64,000 bases of DNA from the IMG/VR virus record IMGVR_UViG_3300034121_001409, positions 1 to 64,000 of that record; one strand, given 5' to 3'. Under the pieces are notes generated by a model. It was not told where the DNA came from, made no database searches, and worked only from the letters and a program-made list of their open reading frames with translations. The DNA is from a virus. The position numbers and the translations under genes were made by a program. Shown in pieces: positions 4,611 to 61,665 of this stretch. Positions within the stretch are counted from its first letter, which is position 1. The number at the start of each line of letters is the position of its first letter.

Positions 4611-5741
4611 TTAATCTTGTTTTTGTTTTGCTAAATACAATTCGTAAGCCTTGTTGATAACATAAGGCAGCATGGTCTCTGTATCACCACGATACATAAG
4701 GTCTTGGTATTTCTTAATAACCTTACCACCATTACCAAATGCCTCCTTCAGAAGAGATTCACTGAAGCCTCTCTCAGATAACAACCCTTCCATCTCCTTC
4801 ACTTCATTTAAGGCTCGGATACCGGAATCAGGCAACTTGTAGCCCTCGTTCAATAATTCTATCAACTCCTCTGCGGCTCCATCAACTATTTCATCAGCCA
4901 CAACAACAGCATCCTGAATGTCCTTCTTCTTGTTCACATCCTTCATCTTATTTTCAGTTGCAGTAGTGGATGTCATCGGCTTAGTTTTAATTTCATTACC
5001 ATCATCCATAAATGTTGTATCCGTCTGAGCATTCGCATTATCATGCAGAGACATAACTGTTCCGATATCGTCATAGTTATCATTCTTAGGCATCATCTTC
5101 CACAGGTAACGGATAGCCGTCTTCTTAATCATCTCACCCCTGTTGTCTCCTTCCCATATAGTTGATGACCACTCTCCGGCATCCTTCTTCTTCTTGGCAA
5201 ATTTGTACGCTTCTGTGCCATTCATAATCTGATTCACACGCTCAATCGGAAGGTAAACATACTGATAGTAATCATCACCCCTTGCGGCTGCGGCAAACAC
5301 CCCTATCTCCTCTCCTTTGTCTTTTTTCAACACATGGTAAGGCACATATTTTGCTACCTTATTTCGGGCAAAATCAAACTCAAAATCATCACCTTCGTAA
5401 ATGACCTGAGCAAACGCTTCTTTCGCTGCTCCGTACTCCACCAATTTAGTTATCATTCCCTGATATCCTAAATCTAAACAACATTTATCCTTTCTTGGTA
5501 TCAGATAAGCCTGAGCCAAATTCGGATTCAATGTAAGCCCCAACAGAGCCACATTTTGAATGGATTCTTTTACAGAGTCAACTGTACACTTCTGTAGGTA
5601 TGGACTCTTCTTTATGGCATCTAATGCAAACATACACTGCGTTGCCATGTTTAATTTAAAAGAAGTAGACTGTTGTAGCTCCTTCTGAAACTCAGGACTC
5701 TTTAATGTTCCCTCTAACGTAATTAATTCACTTGATGTCAT
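4611..5741 (-). CDS. recT: RecT-family ssDNA annealing recombinase
   Basis: LQKCT..S, LGLTLNP..AYLIP, LGYQGMI, VIYEGDDF and EMIKKTAIR motifs. Confidence 0.9.
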   Translation of the reverse strand: MTSSELITLEGTLKSPEFQKELQQSTSFKLNMATQCMFALDAIKKSPYLQKCTVDSVKESIQNVALLGLTLNPNLAQAYLIPRKDKCCLDLGYQGMITKLVEYGAAKEAFAQVIYEGDDFEFDFARNKVAKYVPYHVLKKDKGEEIGVFAAAARGDDYYQYVYLPIERVNQIMNGTEAYKFAKKKKDAGEWSSTIWEGDNRGEMIKKTAIRYLWKMMPKNDNYDDIGTVMSLHDNANAQTDTTFMDDGNEIKTKPMTSTTATENKMKDVNKKKDIQDAVVVADEIVDGAAEELIELLNEGYKLPDSGIRALNEVKEMEGLLSERGFSESLLKEAFGNGGKVIKKYQDLMYRGDTETMLPYVINKAYELYLAKQKQD

Positions 5742-5766
5742 GTTATTGTTTTTATTGATTATAAAT

Positions 5767-6000
5767 CTACTCTTGCTCTAAAACTATAGTTATTATATGC
5801 GTTGTTACGGCAAGTGTCAATACCTTTACAGGCTCAAATCTATCCGGTATATCTTCGCTTATATCATGGTCAATGTATTTTATAATATATTCCTTCTTTC
5901 CAAAGGTTACTATATCTCCTTTTCTTGGAATAATATTAAGGCTGAACTCTTTAAAGGTTCCATCAGGCAATTTAAAATTTACCGTAGTTTTAATTTCCAT
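5767..6000 (-). CDS. Small hypothetical protein
   Basis: IPRKGDIV motif; start overlaps the upstream stop (TAATG). Confidence 0.6.
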   Translation of the reverse strand: MEIKTTVNFKLPDGTFKEFSLNIIPRKGDIVTFGKKEYIIKYIDHDISEDIPDRFEPVKVLTLAVTTHIITIVLEQE

Positions 6001-6587
6001 TATAATTCACTTTGATTTATTACTGTACTTGTTTGGGTTTTTCTGAAGTCTGACCGGAGCCATCTGTTCGCTGTAGCCTTCCAATCCTTTATATGAACAG
6101 AACCTCTCTTCCATCCTCTCTCCTGCCAATAGTCGTAGAACTCATTAGCCTCTTTTGCAATAACAGGAGTAGCGTACTCTGACTTAGTTATCATATAAGC
6201 CAATACCTCATCTACAGAGCTTGGTTTACCTTTACCGCTTAATACCGGAGCAGATGTCTTCTTTGATACAGCAGAAGGCTTCTTCTTGATGTGTGGCATA
6301 ACAATATAACTCTTATCCTTTATTTTGTTTATAACAATATAGCCGGATAACAGAGCATCTGATATTATATGCCTTGCCACTTTATCAAATAAATAATTGT
6401 CTGAATTTATATCCATATCACCGAAGTCACCAAATAAAATATCCTTACTGAAGTTGTAAATGATATCTCTCGATGTTTCCATCCTGAGACTTTTTGATGC
6501 AATGATTCGCATCTCTATTGACTGAATAATATACAACCCTAAGCAGCCGTATTTCTCTTTAATTACCTTTAACTTATCTTTCGCCAT
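6000..6587 (-). CDS. Phage replication-initiator-like protein
   Basis: C-terminal PSSVDEV..Y...FYDYWQERGW...IKDWKATANRW domain typical of phage replication organisers; likely start at Met 6587, downstream of the hairpin; ends in NQSEL. Confidence 0.65.
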   Translation of the reverse strand: MAKDKLKVIKEKYGCLGLYIIQSIEMRIIASKSLRMETSRDIIYNFSKDILFGDFGDMDINSDNYLFDKVARHIISDALLSGYIVINKIKDKSYIVMPHIKKKPSAVSKKTSAPVLSGKGKPSSVDEVLAYMITKSEYATPVIAKEANEFYDYWQERGWKRGSVHIKDWKATANRWLRSDFRKTQTSTVINQSEL

Positions 6588-6605
6588 TGTATAAAATTTC
6601 TTCTT

Positions 6606-6671
6606 AAAAAAGCCACGCAGAAGCGATAACACAAACATGAATAAAGGTTATCACCTCTGCTTGATGTGGCT
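6606..6671 (-). terminator. Long imperfect hairpin plus U-tract downstream of the tRNA
   Basis: agccac-gcaga-gataac pairs with gttatc-tctgc-gtggct; followed by T6 on the minus strand. Confidence 0.65.
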
Positions 6672-52818: not shown

Positions 52819-53811
52819 TTAGATGATAAAATTAATGTCTTTTTTTTGAATTAAGTGTATATTTTTAAGTTTTTCGTTTTTTATTAGTATATCGTTCCCA
52901 ATCTTCATTCGCTTTGTGTGTTGAAAATTTACAACATCACCGACTTTAGCCTCAGCATTTTCCTCGTCAAAGTCATAGGTTATATACGACTTGTTTGGTG
53001 TTGATATAAAAACCAATGTTCCTAAACCCCATCTCTTGTCTCCCTTCTCATTAAGGTTAAAAATATTCACACTTGTCTCTGTCTCTACAGTTGTTGGTAT
53101 ATTTTCTATATCGACACCACAGTATCCGTTTATAAAAACAATATCCTCTCCTCTCTCAAAAGCGTAACATAAGTCATACCTGATTAGGTAATACTTTTTA
53201 GATGTGCTTTCGTCTTCAATTATTAAACCAAGAACTTCTGCATTCTCTATTGACAAATAATGGAAATGAACGATGTCATCTTTTTTAACAAGAACCCCAT
53301 CAGGATTATCCCACTTTATTGTCATGTTTGTCATCTTGGCTATAGTGCTATCTGCATACAACTCTCTCTGAGATATCTCTTTTCCAAAAAACATAAGATT
53401 GTCCGGTGCTGCAATCACCTTTCCATAGGTCGATGCAAACCTTTCCTTTTGAAATGATTTATCAATAATAAAATTCGTATTACTCTCTGCCGTTCCTTCC
53501 AACTTCTCAACCAAAACATAATTGTATGGAATCTTATATTCTCCATCAACTATCAAACAAACAACCTCTGATTGGTTTATCACTTCGTGTGTTGAATCAT
53601 TATACTCTATATCAATTCCTGAGTACCTGTCATAAACAACAACATCACCAACAGAGCAGCAGTCAAATTCACTTTTACTTTCTGACACAGCAACAACCAA
53701 ACCCCTGCTTGTTATTCTTTTAAAATAATGATGCATTTTTAAGGTTAACCTTTCTAATTCAGGGTCGTGCTTAAATGGCTTGATTATTATATTTCCTTTT
53801 GTTGGTTTCAT
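52819..53811 (-). CDS. Triple tandem GroES-like protein
   Basis: Three repeats of the Cpn10 pattern (aa ~1-88, ~91-220, ~223-330): P...(V/I)(L/I)(V/I), G.(V/L)(V/I), V/KxGD.V.(Y/F), (L/V)I...(D/E). Confidence 0.72.
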   Translation of the reverse strand: MKPTKGNIIIKPFKHDPELERLTLKMHHYFKRITSRGLVVAVSESKSEFDCCSVGDVVVYDRYSGIDIEYNDSTHEVINQSEVVCLIVDGEYKIPYNYVLVEKLEGTAESNTNFIIDKSFQKERFASTYGKVIAAPDNLMFFGKEISQRELYADSTIAKMTNMTIKWDNPDGVLVKKDDIVHFHYLSIENAEVLGLIIEDESTSKKYYLIRYDLCYAFERGEDIVFINGYCGVDIENIPTTVETETSVNIFNLNEKGDKRWGLGTLVFISTPNKSYITYDFDEENAEAKVGDVVNFQHTKRMKIGNDILIKNEKLKNIHLIQKKDINFII

Positions 53812-54446
53812 AATTCAGATTGGTTGAAAGTCGAGCCGGAGCTAAACTTTTCTTTTGTTGGTTTTTCTTTTGTAGAAGTCAACTTGTTATAAAAATGTTC
53901 CTTAAACTTATCATACGTAAGGTTTTTTGTTTTTAATGATGAATGATACTCTTTTACCTCTGATAATGATTTATCTATTTTGTATGATGAATACTGTAAT
54001 TTTAATCCATCCATTATCTCATCCCATTTTAACTGCAAAGAAAATTTTTCAATTTTTTCTTTATATTTATTATTAGATAAGTCTTTTATTAAATCAGTAT
54101 TTAATTGTGTGCGTTTTACCGTTGACGGTTTTACCGTTGACGGCTTTTCAGTAAACGGTGATTCGAAAAACGTATATTCATTCTCAGAAAACTTTCCGGA
54201 TTCCCCTCTCACTTTTGCTATAGAGCAATATCCTTTTTCAATCAATTCTTTTATTGTGTTTTTAACAGCATCTCTTCCTTCTGTGGTGATAGCCAATAAT
54301 CCATTTACAGATAATTGCCATCCAACAGGAAAGGATAATACTAATGTAAATAACCCTTTTGCTCTTAAAGATAAGTTTGGGTCTTTTAAATAAACATTCG
54401 AAACTACTGTGTAATTTGTTTCCCTTTTGACTCTTATTATTTCCAT
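53808..54446 (-). CDS. Phage replication initiator (N-terminal HTH) containing iterons
   Basis: NYTVVSN..LKD..LSLRAKGL..L.LS.P..W...EG..AV...IKEL...GY motif; internal 15-bp repeats; ends in NQSEL. Confidence 0.8.
   Translation of the reverse strand: MEIIRVKRETNYTVVSNVYLKDPNLSLRAKGLFTLVLSFPVGWQLSVNGLLAITTEGRDAVKNTIKELIEKGYCSIAKVRGESGKFSENEYTFFESPFTEKPSTVKPSTVKRTQLNTDLIKDLSNNKYKEKIEKFSLQLKWDEIMDGLKLQYSSYKIDKSLSEVKEYHSSLKTKNLTYDKFKEHFYNKLTSTKEKPTKEKFSSGSTFNQSEL
54114..54158. repeat. Three tandem 15-bp iteron-like repeats (probable origin)
   Basis: TTTTACCGTTGACGG twice exact, plus CTTTTCAGTAAACGG; AT-rich tract adjacent at ~54040-54105. Confidence 0.75.
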
Positions 54447-55863: not shown

Positions 55864-57267
55864 ATGGCAAACAATCAATTCTTAGAACACTCCATATTGG
55901 GTACTATGCTCAATAACACATCTGCAATGATTATAGGATTGCAGAAAATTAATACACATGAAATTTTCAGCGATGATGTTTCTCAGTTGTGCTACAAAAA
56001 TATACAGGAGATGTTTTTATCTCAGGTGGAGGTAGACGCATTCTCGTTCAAGGAATACCTTACTAAGAAGAAAATGTTTTCGAGAGTAGGTGACGTTACT
56101 TACAAATCAATTTTTGCGCATAACCTTACGATGCCTAATTTCGAACAGAAGCTGCGCTCTCTGAGAGATAATTACATCTACAGGGTTCAGGTACAGACAG
56201 CGAATGATATCTTATCAAAAGCAGCTACAGGTTCTATTCCTCCGGCAGAACTTGCGTTGGAAGCTATCTCTGCTATTGAGGCTACTTTATCAGCAGATAA
56301 ATCAGACAGCACACAAGCTATAGGGTCTCTTTTGTTTCAACTGAATAAGCAAATGAAGAATCCTTCTGCAAAGAAAAATTATGTAACAACAGGCTATTCT
56401 GAGCTTGACGAGTTTGTGAAGTTTCAGGAAGGAGACTTGGTTGTTCTTGCTGCCCGACCATCTATGGGAAAAACAGCATTGCTTCTTGAGATAGCGAGAA
56501 GGCAGTCATTTTTAAACAACATTCCGGTAGCCATATTTTCATTAGAGATGGATGCAATGAGATACACTAAGCGTATAGCTGCTCGTTCTTTAAAGGTTAA
56601 CTCTTCTGTTTTCGATGAAGATTTTAAAGACAAAACCATTGAGAATGAATACAACTCATTAGTAACTAAATTTGCAAACTCTCCATTCTACATAGAGGAT
56701 GACCCTTCTATTACTGTAAATGCTTTATTTGCAAAAATCATAGTTCTTGCTGTATCAAAAAAAATCAGAACATTTGCTATTGACCACATGGGTCTTGTTA
56801 AGTTATTGTTTGATAAGAACAAAAACAAAACCGATGCTATTGGAGAGCTTACAAGTGGATTAAAAATGTTGGCAAGGAAACTTAGGGTCACTATAGTGGT
56901 TCTGAGCCAATTAAACCGAGCAGTAGAACAAAGACCTGTGCCAAGACCTATGCTTTCAGACCTTCGTGACTCCGGCTCTATTGAACAGGATGCGGATATT
57001 GTTATGTTTTTATACCGTACCGATTACTATCCTCAGACAAAATTTGAAGCTAAATCTACAGAGAAGCAGTTTGAGCATTTTAATGGCAAGTATGCGCTTC
57101 GTCATTATACAGAACATGGAGAGCTTCGTGTGGTTGATGTTTCAGGAACCTGTGAGGTTATTGTTGCCAAAAACCGAGATGGCAAAACAGGTAAATTATA
57201 TTTTGATTTCAAGAAGACCTTTGGTGGTTTTTATTACAACGAATCTATTTCATCACTTTTAAAATAA
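55864..57267 (+). CDS. dnaB: Replicative DNA helicase DnaB
   Basis: AARPSMGKT, FSLEM, IDH, LSQLNR, DLRDSGSIEQDAD and AKNRDG motifs. Confidence 0.96.
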   Translation: MANNQFLEHSILGTMLNNTSAMIIGLQKINTHEIFSDDVSQLCYKNIQEMFLSQVEVDAFSFKEYLTKKKMFSRVGDVTYKSIFAHNLTMPNFEQKLRSLRDNYIYRVQVQTANDILSKAATGSIPPAELALEAISAIEATLSADKSDSTQAIGSLLFQLNKQMKNPSAKKNYVTTGYSELDEFVKFQEGDLVVLAARPSMGKTALLLEIARRQSFLNNIPVAIFSLEMDAMRYTKRIAARSLKVNSSVFDEDFKDKTIENEYNSLVTKFANSPFYIEDDPSITVNALFAKIIVLAVSKKIRTFAIDHMGLVKLLFDKNKNKTDAIGELTSGLKMLARKLRVTIVVLSQLNRAVEQRPVPRPMLSDLRDSGSIEQDADIVMFLYRTDYYPQTKFEAKSTEKQFEHFNGKYALRHYTEHGELRVVDVSGTCEVIVAKNRDGKTGKLYFDFKKTFGGFYYNESISSLLK

Positions 57268-59955: not shown

Positions 59956-61665
59956 ATGCGAATATCTAAGGATACAATACAGAGTGCTTCTCAGGTTAAC
60001 ATCTACGATGCCCTGAGTCCTGTTCTTCCATTGAAGAAGATGGGTAATTTATATAAATGCAGATGTCCTTTCCATAATGAGAAATCAGCATCCTTTACCG
60101 TTAATCCGGAGCGCAACATTTACAAATGCTTCGGATGCGGAAAGGGAGGCGATGCCATCACATTCTTTATGGAACATGAGGGGTTTACCTTTCCTGAGTC
60201 CGTAAAGTATGTGTGTGAGCAGAACAAGATTCCTTTCGTAACAGACACCGATGGCGATGAGCAAGATGCTGTACAACAGAGAACATCAAAGATTCTTGAA
60301 ATAAACAGGGTAACCTTAGATTTCTTTAAATCTTTAATGAAGGGCAGCAAGTCTTACACTCAAGCAACAGGCAGGGGTTATTCGGATGAAACCATAACCA
60401 AGTGGGAGCTTGGTCACAGCTCTGCTCTGTTTACAAAACTTTACAAACATTTACAGGGCTTAAACTACAGCGATAGCGATATCTTTCTCTCCGGTGTAGT
60501 AAAACAGAAGGAAGATGGTGGTGCTTATGATGCATTCAGAGACAGGTGGATATTTCCGATACACAACGTATTCGGTAAGATTATTGGCTTTAGCGGCAGA
60601 AGGCTTCTTGAGACAACAAATCCAAAATACATCAACAGCTCAGAGACCGCAGTGTTCAAAAAATCAAATGAACTATTCGGGTTGTTCTTTGCCAAGAAGA
60701 GCATTATAGAGCATGACAACGCTATATTGGTAGAAGGAGCCACAGATGTTATTTCTATGCACCAAGCAGGTATATGCAACACCGTTGCAACTTTAGGTAC
60801 AGCATTTTCTGCGTCTCATGCTAAAATCATCAAGCGGTACACAGACAATGTTACCTCTCTTTTCGATGGAGACCAAGCCGGATTGAAGGCTACCTTTAAA
60901 TCATGCGAGGAGCTACTGAAGGAAGGTCTTATGGTTTACATCTGTCCACTTCCGGAAGGTAAAGACCCTGACCAATGTATCAGGGAAATGGGTGATGCAG
61001 AATTTAAGGATTACATTTCTGCCAACAGAAAGGAGTTTATAGAATACAGAACTTCACTTTTAAGTGAATCTGTAAACGAGAAAGCAAAGGTGGCAAAGGA
61101 ATTGTACCGGATGATAAACCTGCATCCTGACCGGATAGTGCGCAACGTTCTGCTTTCTGATTACAACAAGAAGTTCGGCTTTAAATTGGAATCCTACACA
61201 GCTACTAAAACTCAGGAGGAGTCAGAATCTCTTCCTATGGAATTTCACATCCTCAGAGTGATGCTGCTTTATGGTCAGGAGTATGACGTTCATTCTTATT
61301 TTAAACACACAGAGCAGAGAAATTATGTGTACTATTTTAAGAACATGGACTACCTTAAGTTATTCACCTTTATGATGGATAATCAGAATCTCAGTATAAC
61401 AGAAATTCTGCACAATGAAGACCAAGAGATAGCAGATACAGCCTCCGGAATCCTGAACACAAAATTTGATGTATCAGACAATCCGGTGTACGATATAATG
61501 AGCTGTTTTTTTGAAGCAGACAGACAGGTAATAGAAAAACTTGAGCAGGAGCTTTGGGAAAAAGGTTTAAATAAAAACTTTAAAAGCACCATGTCCTTAA
61601 TTGCTCTGCATAAGGAAGATATTCAAAATAATATTATGAACAATATAAATAAAGCAACATCATGA
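59956..61665 (+). CDS. dnaG: DNA primase DnaG
   Basis: CPFH.EK..SF...CFGC zinc finger; FRDR.IFPI, PKYINS, VEG..D, FDGD.AG and GKDPD motifs. Confidence 0.96.
   Translation: MRISKDTIQSASQVNIYDALSPVLPLKKMGNLYKCRCPFHNEKSASFTVNPERNIYKCFGCGKGGDAITFFMEHEGFTFPESVKYVCEQNKIPFVTDTDGDEQDAVQQRTSKILEINRVTLDFFKSLMKGSKSYTQATGRGYSDETITKWELGHSSALFTKLYKHLQGLNYSDSDIFLSGVVKQKEDGGAYDAFRDRWIFPIHNVFGKIIGFSGRRLLETTNPKYINSSETAVFKKSNELFGLFFAKKSIIEHDNAILVEGATDVISMHQAGICNTVATLGTAFSASHAKIIKRYTDNVTSLFDGDQAGLKATFKSCEELLKEGLMVYICPLPEGKDPDQCIREMGDAEFKDYISANRKEFIEYRTSLLSESVNEKAKVAKELYRMINLHPDRIVRNVLLSDYNKKFGFKLESYTATKTQEESESLPMEFHILRVMLLYGQEYDVHSYFKHTEQRNYVYYFKNMDYLKLFTFMMDNQNLSITEILHNEDQEIADTASGILNTKFDVSDNPVYDIMSCFFEADRQVIEKLEQELWEKGLNKNFKSTMSLIALHKEDIQNNIMNNINKATS

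Follow-up and report, generated by a model that had tools for sequence, protein, structure and literature searches.

A C-terminal NQSEL tip shared by two replication-initiator-type proteins of a phage, a possible docking peptide

Introduction

The closest described systems are bacterial replication adaptors with C-terminal tails. In Bacillus subtilis, the end of the DnaD tail (residues 225-232, the last eight, including W229) docks on the C-terminal domain of DnaB, and the tail of DnaB (residues 449-472) docks on the AAA+ domain of DnaI, the loader (PMC13326638). In Escherichia coli, DnaT has a C-terminal three-helix bundle that binds ssDNA and continues into a flexible tail, about 20 residues long (PMC5778457, PMC4132743). 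How DnaT recruits DnaB/DnaC is unsettled; its N-terminal domain is currently proposed to be responsible, and a role for its own tail is not established (PMC13377028).

Beyond E. coli and Bacillus, little is understood of the way in which phage initiators that have no recognisable loader bring a helicase to DNA, and in phages of Bacteroidota-type hosts the question is essentially unstudied. A common C-terminal address to a hub is found in the SSB tip (D-D-D-I/L-P-F), in the acidic tails of T7 gp2.5 and gp4 and in the clamp-binding tails of several T4 proteins. Here, we describe two replication-initiator-type proteins of one phage that end with the same five residues, and we discuss whether this tip may serve as a docking peptide.

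Results

Two proteins of the phage share the NQSEL end

The window is a DNA stretch of 64,000 nucleotides and represents part of the phage genome, a 75,194-bp IMG/VR virus record that carries a terminal repeat of 41 bp. Two of its genes, hereafter protein 1 and protein 2, are relevant here.

6000..6587, minus strand: protein 1 gene, 195 aa from M18; replisome-organiser type, with a winged helix and a C-terminal module
6003..6017, minus strand: NQSEL tip of protein 1; stop codon at 6000..6002
53808..54446, minus strand: protein 2 gene, 212 aa; HTH_36-type phage replication initiator
53811..53825, minus strand: NQSEL tip of protein 2; stop codon at 53808..53810

The ORF of protein 1 (6000..6638, minus strand) ends with ...FRKTQTSTVINQSEL (last residues TSTVINQSEL) and that of protein 2 (53808..54446, minus strand) with ...KFSSGSTFNQSEL (last residues GSTFNQSEL). 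The codons of the tip and the stop are AAT CAA AGT GAA TTA TAA in protein 1 and AAC CAA TCT GAA TTA TGA in protein 2. Thus, 12 of the 15 nucleotides that encode NQSEL are identical and every difference, in the Asn and Ser codons, is synonymous, the two Ser codons belonging to different codon families. The stop codon of each gene overlaps the next ATG (TAATG for protein 1, ATGA for protein 2), with different offsets. Besides proteins 1 and 2, no ORF ending with NQSEL, QSEL or SEL was found in the whole 75,194-bp genome. BLASTP comparison of the two proteins revealed no similarity beyond the tail, and the best local alignment of the DNA flanking the two tails lies within shuffled controls.

The original prediction had noticed the identical ends of 6000..6587 and 53808..54446, both on the minus strand, as well as their differing codons. 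Both observations are confirmed, the codon differences being the synonymous Asn and Ser ones. Its argument against a DNA duplication also holds: the flanks resemble shuffled controls, a 16-nt motif is not enriched and the start regions are unremarkable.

Among 85 putative genes, 0.003-0.005 pairs with a common five-residue tail are expected, and simulation gives P = 0.006 for any such tail. In a single genome this is unlikely and of moderate weight; because very many windows were scanned, however, a P of about 0.006 per genome is not negligible, so that the weight of the argument rests on conservation in relatives.

Protein 1 and its surroundings

An upstream ATG at 6638 would give a protein 1 of 212 aa. 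Homologues begin at the MAKDK position, which corresponds to M18 (6587), and this is probably the true start, judging from the alignment. The domains of protein 1, as delineated in the AlphaFold2 (AF2) model (mean pLDDT 85.6), and the genes that follow are listed below.

6300..6587, minus strand: winged-helix DNA-binding domain of protein 1, residues 1-96 (AF2 pLDDT about 90-97)
6054..6215, minus strand: C-terminal helical domain of protein 1, residues 125-178 (pLDDT 92-97)
6003..6053, minus strand: flexible tail of protein 1, residues 179-195 (AF2 pLDDT 53-63)
5767..6000, minus strand: 77-aa ORF, located between protein 1 and RecT, its ATG overlapping the protein 1 stop
4611..5741, minus strand: RecT recombinase (Pfam RecT 2.1e-26)

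An exhaustive HMMER search retrieved 314 relatives of protein 1. A few of them are full-length (P0001, P0015-P0018, P0021, P0024 and others) and most share only the C-terminal module. In protein 1 itself, Pfam Lin1244_N (PF14297) scores 22.7 bits for a cut-off of 25, and the same family matches 11 of 58 aligned relatives (best E = 1.6e-19). Pfam DnaT (PF17948) scores 17.1-17.3 bits (cut-off 25; E = 0.004) and matches one of the 58 relatives at E < 0.01. Sequence searches of the PDB with the protein 1 family profile found neither DnaT nor DnaD, and tblastn of protein 1 against GenBank phages gave no match. The best fold matches are the winged-helix domains of ORC/Cdc6 (Z 7.6-8.7 over 82-87 aligned residues), and Foldseek relates the winged helix to forkhead/BlaI-type domains; these fold searches were taken up by matches to the N-terminal domain, and their results concern that domain only.

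The C-terminal domain is predicted by AF2 to contain three helices (125-135, 140-156 and 169-178). It carries the weakly DnaT-like pattern 'FYDYW...KDWKAT..RW', the module common to most relatives reading 'FYDYW..GW..KDWKAT..RNW'. Among the 58 aligned relatives, this module is located behind Lin1244_N (11), DUF6291 (9), HTH_36 (5), DUF1376 (4) or DnaD_N (2). Since it sits behind several types of N-terminal domain, the module is portable.

The gene of protein 1 lies two genes upstream of RecT and, as inferred from the position of an indel joint, adjoins it directly in a sister phage described below. By this gene arrangement, RecT and protein 1 form a module. At the N-terminus of RecT, MTSSEL, the codons AGT GAA TTA of the protein 1 tail recur, which makes an exact 10-nt repeat (5724-5733 and 6003-6012). 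Repeats of 10-11 nt are common in the genome and this likeness was judged to be a chance one.

Protein 2 and its surroundings

Protein 2 matches phrog_4707, 'replication initiation protein' (E = 4.8e-21, residues 3-115), and phrog_186, 'DnaD-like helicase loader' (E = 1e-8). Pfam HTH_36 (PF13730) alone scores 16.9 bits, below the cut-off of 25. According to tblastn, the N-terminal domain is 40-46% identical to replication proteins of Bacteroides and Parabacteroides phages. In the AF2 model, the winged helix (residues 1-95) is followed by a disordered linker (100-125) and, with low confidence, by three helices (126-151, 154-174 and 178-193). A word-based search with the C-terminal half alone found no relatives. 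A search of the ESM Atlas gave leads only, such as DUF7833.

53868..54071, minus strand: C-terminal helical region of protein 2, residues 126-193 (AF2 pLDDT 43-59, low confidence)
53811..53867, minus strand: disordered tail of protein 2, residues 194-212 (AF2 pLDDT 33-43 over 192-212, about 34 in the tail)
54114..54158, strand not given: three 15-nt units in tandem, each with a CCGT..ACGG core, in the part of the protein 2 gene that encodes the linker
55864..57267, plus strand: phage DnaB-type replicative helicase (Pfam DnaB_C 1.1e-68, DnaB N-domain 3.7e-8, phrog_19 8.4e-71)

The tandem units consist of two perfect copies of CCGTCAACGGTAAAA and one degenerate copy, CCGTTTACTGAAAAG, and encode the peptide KPSTVKPSTVK. 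Repeated peptides are found at the same linker position in relatives of protein 2. By analogy with phages that have their origin inside the initiator gene, the array at 54114..54158 is a candidate origin iteron array. The protein 2 gene is located at a strand switch. The operon on the other side encodes a tyrosine recombinase, DnaB, a YqaJ exonuclease, a 3'-5' exonuclease, RuvC and, at 59956..61665, the DnaG primase. The phage DnaB helicase is one candidate partner of the shared tail.

Downstream of protein 2, a 330-aa Cpn10-like fusion protein (52819-53811) contains VINQSEVV in its first Cpn10 unit. The VINQSE stretch common to this protein and to the protein 1 tail was judged to be due to chance, since it lies at the position of the GroES C-terminal strand; six-residue matches are common in the genome.

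Among the genes tested, neither a helicase loader (DnaC/IstB, lambda P or G39P types) nor an SSB was detected, and no DNA polymerase gene was recognised in the genome. The initial remark that no helicase loader is visible thus agrees with the present search, in which none of the genes tested matches a known loader. In the absence of a recognised polymerase or SSB gene, the phage probably relies on host enzymes. The start regions of the genome show no Shine-Dalgarno signal; instead, like those of Bacteroidota, they are rich in A at -3 and around -12 to -9. The runs that contain the phage are lake and other freshwater metagenomes, plus one fish-gut run at a small share, and the nearest phage relatives infect Bacteroidales. 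The lack of Shine-Dalgarno signals, the freshwater runs and these relatives together make a Bacteroidota-type host likely.

Common architecture of the two proteins

In the AF2 models, each protein is composed of a winged helix, a linker, a helical domain and a tail of low pLDDT, with about 19 residues between the last helix and the C-terminus. Thus, as modeled, proteins 1 and 2 share the same plan though their sequences do not align. With hhalign, the C-terminal halves of the two families gave no match and the winged helices only a 3% probability. The HMM of the protein 1 C-terminal domain marginally matches Eubacteriales relatives of protein 2 (7-9 bits), the match involving their 'KNHLATIRNWARRE' helix; at this score, it may be read as a hint of a link between the C-terminal halves.

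These results bear on three points of the original prediction. The assignment of both proteins to replication-organiser or initiator types is borne out by Pfam, phrog and HMMER relatives, and the view of the tail as a short C-terminal docking motif fits its position on a predicted flexible extension in both models. The statement that the proteins have no other similarity stands as far as BLASTP is concerned. It was nevertheless overstated, since both share the plan of winged helix, linker, helical domain and tail of about 19 residues, and since the C-module of protein 1 is also found fused to HTH_36, the N-terminal domain type of protein 2.

The tip is kept in a sister phage

A sister phage (68,850-bp contig, run X7) encodes two proteins, P0167 and P0169, that both end with NQSEL. 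So far, the exact NQSEL end is found only in the present phage and in this close sister. The sister protein 1 is 92% identical to protein 1, and residues 198-207 (numbering of the 212-aa form), directly before the tip, account for 8 of the 16 substitutions. The linker preceding NQSEL changes from RKTQTSTVI to RQAKTDVST; 8 of the 10 preceding residues differ. At the nucleotide level, about 14 of the 32 differences in the gene are located within 6018..6048. The sister phage also has no 77-aa ORF: positions 5754..5998 are skipped and replaced by TATTG, the indel joint being one base past the protein 1 stop codon. The end of the protein 1 gene thus coincides with a module boundary. The five NQSEL codons and the stop show at most one nucleotide change; this is an upper limit, since differences within about 30 nt of the joint are not listed by the comparison.

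With a scrambled linker on one side and a lost gene on the other, the tip was held while both flanks changed. Taken by itself, and with at most one change in the NQSEL codons, the sister comparison would fit selection on the protein or conservation of the DNA alike. As a separate observation, the density of differences in the linker codons 6018-6048 (about 14 in 31 nt) compares with about 3% elsewhere in the protein 1 gene, and points to local hypervariability or to a patch introduced by recombination.

Tails of wider relatives

Nine distinct close relatives of protein 1 (25-92% identity) have the tails NQSEL (twice), NAIEL, GGNFI, KINSL, KRNTI, GGSYL, MSSYL and SQNVI; NAIEL is the tail of P0015, encoded on a 45,311-bp contig. 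All nine end with L or I, versus 16% in a background of 141 distant relatives, and eight of the nine have S or N at position -3, versus 10% in the background. Each of the two preferences has P of about 8e-8 if the sequences are taken as independent, which they are not fully, although their linkers are unalignable.

In 125 wider relatives of protein 1, the last eight residues are more hydrophobic than the preceding linker (0.29 versus 0.18, p = 4e-10) and poorer in K/R. The hydrophobic, K/R-poor tip behind a polar linker thus characterises the family of protein 1. The wider-relative tips are lineage-specific, as illustrated by DDLPY, IFLDLLD, EELPDLW and IDELFPD.

The only full-length relatives of protein 2 belong to one close clade of Eubacteriales (33-35% identity by BLASTP). 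They end with ..YEFKEGESL, which aligns as STFNQSE-L with YEFKEGESL, and their E-S-L tip departs from the [SN]-x-[LI] pattern seen in protein 1 and its family. Conservation of NQSEL in homologues of both genes, named at the outset as a way to check the idea, was thus found to be exact in the sister phage and to take a recognisable form in wider relatives.

Scans of viral contigs with protein 1 or protein 2 found no close relatives, and a scan with the family alignment retrieved only distant relatives of the C-terminal domain. A scan of metagenome contigs gave no match.

Among 71 family proteins encoded in 8-kb viral loci, three share at least their last three residues with a neighbouring ORF, versus about 0.4 expected. 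In one IMG/VR phage locus (L025:2090-3912), a relative of the C-module ends with ..DPMGFLPF and is encoded beside a true SSB (PF00436) that ends with ..DPDDLPF. From its sequence, the organiser at this locus appears to copy the SSB tip.

Two other loci deserve mention in their own right. At L034:3140-4965, three consecutive genes end with ESEEK, EREEK and ESEEK; their products are an HNH-containing protein with a C-module, a DUF7446 protein and a 137-aa ORF. In Oribacterium sp. (L088:9992-11517), the gene of a protein 2 relative ending with ..EFKEGESL has a stop that overlaps the start of a loader gene. This loader is a DnaC/IstB-like AAA+ protein ending with ..KEVLEL and is followed by a ParB-like gene and a serine recombinase, which gives the locus the look of an integrated element.

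Discussion

A docking peptide and its alternatives

We hold, with slightly better than even confidence, that NQSEL is a short docking peptide with which both initiators recruit one partner. NQSEL would lie at the end of a flexible C-terminal extension, about 19 residues long, on two modular replication adaptors. Protein 2 would most likely be the origin binder, with its HTH_36 domain, the iteron-like repeats in its own gene and its position beside the DnaB operon. Protein 1, encoded with RecT, would be a second organiser, possibly acting in recombination-dependent or restart loading. Each N-terminal domain would bind DNA, and the C-terminal domain of protein 1 may bind ssDNA. The exposed tip would then act as a short linear docking motif through which both proteins bring the same partner to DNA, and we propose from its identity in the two that both are tuned to one binding pocket. 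Of the features that mark docking motifs, disorder is seen in the AF2 models and conservation relative to the flanks in the sequences. The docking itself and the identity of the partner are what we infer from this, with the phage's DnaB helicase or primase, or a replication factor of the host, as candidates.

A bolder version, which we find doubtful, takes [SN]-x-[LI]-COOH as a phage-specific address tag that directly binds the phage DnaB, or a host loader-less helicase system, and with which the two adaptors would load one helicase with no dedicated loader. Protein 2 would act specifically at the origin through the iterons, and protein 1 would be coupled to the recombination intermediates made by RecT. 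If true, this would provide a minimal plug-in logic for the switch between origin-dependent and recombination-dependent replication.

The exact identity of the two tips may also be a coincidence, produced by chance and by loose constraints on a polar tail ending with Leu, in proteins with no common partner. With many windows scanned, a per-genome P of about 0.006 arises often, and the loose constraints of the family (terminal L/I, S/N at -3, E-x-L) raise the odds of a chance match. The C-terminal halves show no other similarity by BLASTP or hhalign, and unrelated six-residue matches such as VINQSE, between protein 1 and the Cpn10-like protein, do exist in the genome. Against this stand the location of the match at the extreme C-terminus of both proteins, the equal tail length, the same architecture and the same functional class, as well as the sister phage, which keeps the tip next to a scrambled linker and a changed downstream gene; we therefore regard coincidence as rather unlikely. 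Selection on the tip could, on the other hand, have a cause other than docking, the tail being a degron for a common protease or an autoinhibitory element that folds onto its own C-terminal domain. Initiators are often under proteolytic control, and the exposed, flexible C-terminus of the AF2 models suits recognition by a protease. For autoinhibition, a self-interaction between the C-terminal domain and the tail is predicted in B. subtilis DnaB (PMC13326638). Such roles seem improbable in view of the tips of the broad family, which are hydrophobic or acidic, some of them copying the SSB tip, and which point to recruitment. Moreover, to our knowledge, NQSEL and [SN]-x-[LI] are unlike the known classes of C-terminal degrons, such as the ssrA-like LAA-COOH.

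Two further explanations concern the nucleic acid. A signal for translation coupling or for the start of the next gene, or a junction for module exchange, would account for the fact that both tails abut overlapping stop and start codons (TAATG and ATGA), and for the sister phage, where the indel joint directly follows the stop and hardly any change has touched the NQSEL codons. However, the offset of the ATG differs between the two loci, Shine-Dalgarno signals are absent from the genome and neither upstream stretch stands apart from the other 79. The 16-nt motif, allowing up to two mismatches, has 4 matches versus 4.4 expected. All differences between the copies are synonymous, including the switch of Ser codon family, the tip stays in the sister phage though the downstream gene is gone, and distant relatives keep residue classes rather than DNA. 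Such an element is thus very improbable. A recent copy or gene conversion that transferred the 3' end between the two genes would explain the identity of 12 of 15 nucleotides; it is extremely improbable, given that the similarity ends at five codons, that the flanks lie within shuffled controls and that the Ser codons come from different families.

Comparison with known systems

The original prediction called the docking peptide 'undescribed'. This does not hold for the mode of action, since B. subtilis DnaD and DnaB are established cases of docking through the distal end of such a tail (PMC13326638). The likeness of proteins 1 and 2 to these proteins is one of architecture and of the presumed use of the tail: small adaptors, an oligomerising or DNA-binding N-terminal domain, a helical C-terminal domain and an unstructured tail. 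The two B. subtilis tails differ and form a relay, whereas here one tip is found on two proteins. Unlike the relay, the same tip on proteins 1 and 2 would imply one shared target. The DnaD tip depends on W229 and the NQSEL sequence is unrelated to it. Also, no AAA+ loader is encoded near proteins 1 and 2, in contrast with B. subtilis and its DnaI. Pfam DnaB_2/DDBH2, with the YxxxIxxxW motif, matches neither protein 1, protein 2 nor any of the 58 relatives; DnaD_N is found in two of the relatives.

Protein 1 resembles DnaT in having a small helical C-terminal domain (F..YW / K..R..W pattern) and, behind it, a flexible tail of 17-19 residues, and the association of protein 1 with a recombinase gene fits a restart-like role. 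The N-terminal domain of protein 1 is, however, a winged helix rather than the DnaT N-terminal domain, and the Pfam score is 17 bits for a cut-off of 25. Because of this sub-threshold DnaT score and of the absence of a DDBH2 match, protein 1 is placed in neither family.

With the SSB-type, T7 and T4 tails, the likeness lies in a flexible tail whose short terminal peptide gives several unrelated proteins of one replisome access to one hub. NQSEL differs from the SSB tip in having one acidic residue and no aromatic end, and it shows no acidic run followed by [IL]-P-F-COOH. The beta-clamp motif (QL[SD]LF or QxxLxF) was considered and rejected: NQSEL has only the Q and an L three residues later, with nothing beyond. 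Among close relatives of protein 1, the tails NAIEL, GGNFI, KINSL, KRNTI, GGSYL and MSSYL are without the Q of this motif, SQNVI being grouped with them. The lambda O/P modules provide a further parallel, with an origin-binding initiator, repeats in its own gene and a C-terminal part directed to the helicase-loading machinery. The family of the N-terminal domain and the tip differ, and the present phage encodes a DnaB and a primase of its own.

The shared five-residue tip offers a small, easily testable handle by which the hub protein might be found, and it may reveal whether replication in its origin-dependent and recombination-dependent forms makes use of a common docking site. More broadly, the combination of a portable 'KDWKA..RNW' module, a polar linker and a lineage-specific hydrophobic tip, in some cases like that of SSB, suggests a general rule for reading the partner specificity of phage replication modules from sequence. 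Read as a docking peptide, NQSEL is of a known kind, that of the C-terminal docking tips of replication adaptors, in a variant where the same tip is carried by two proteins.
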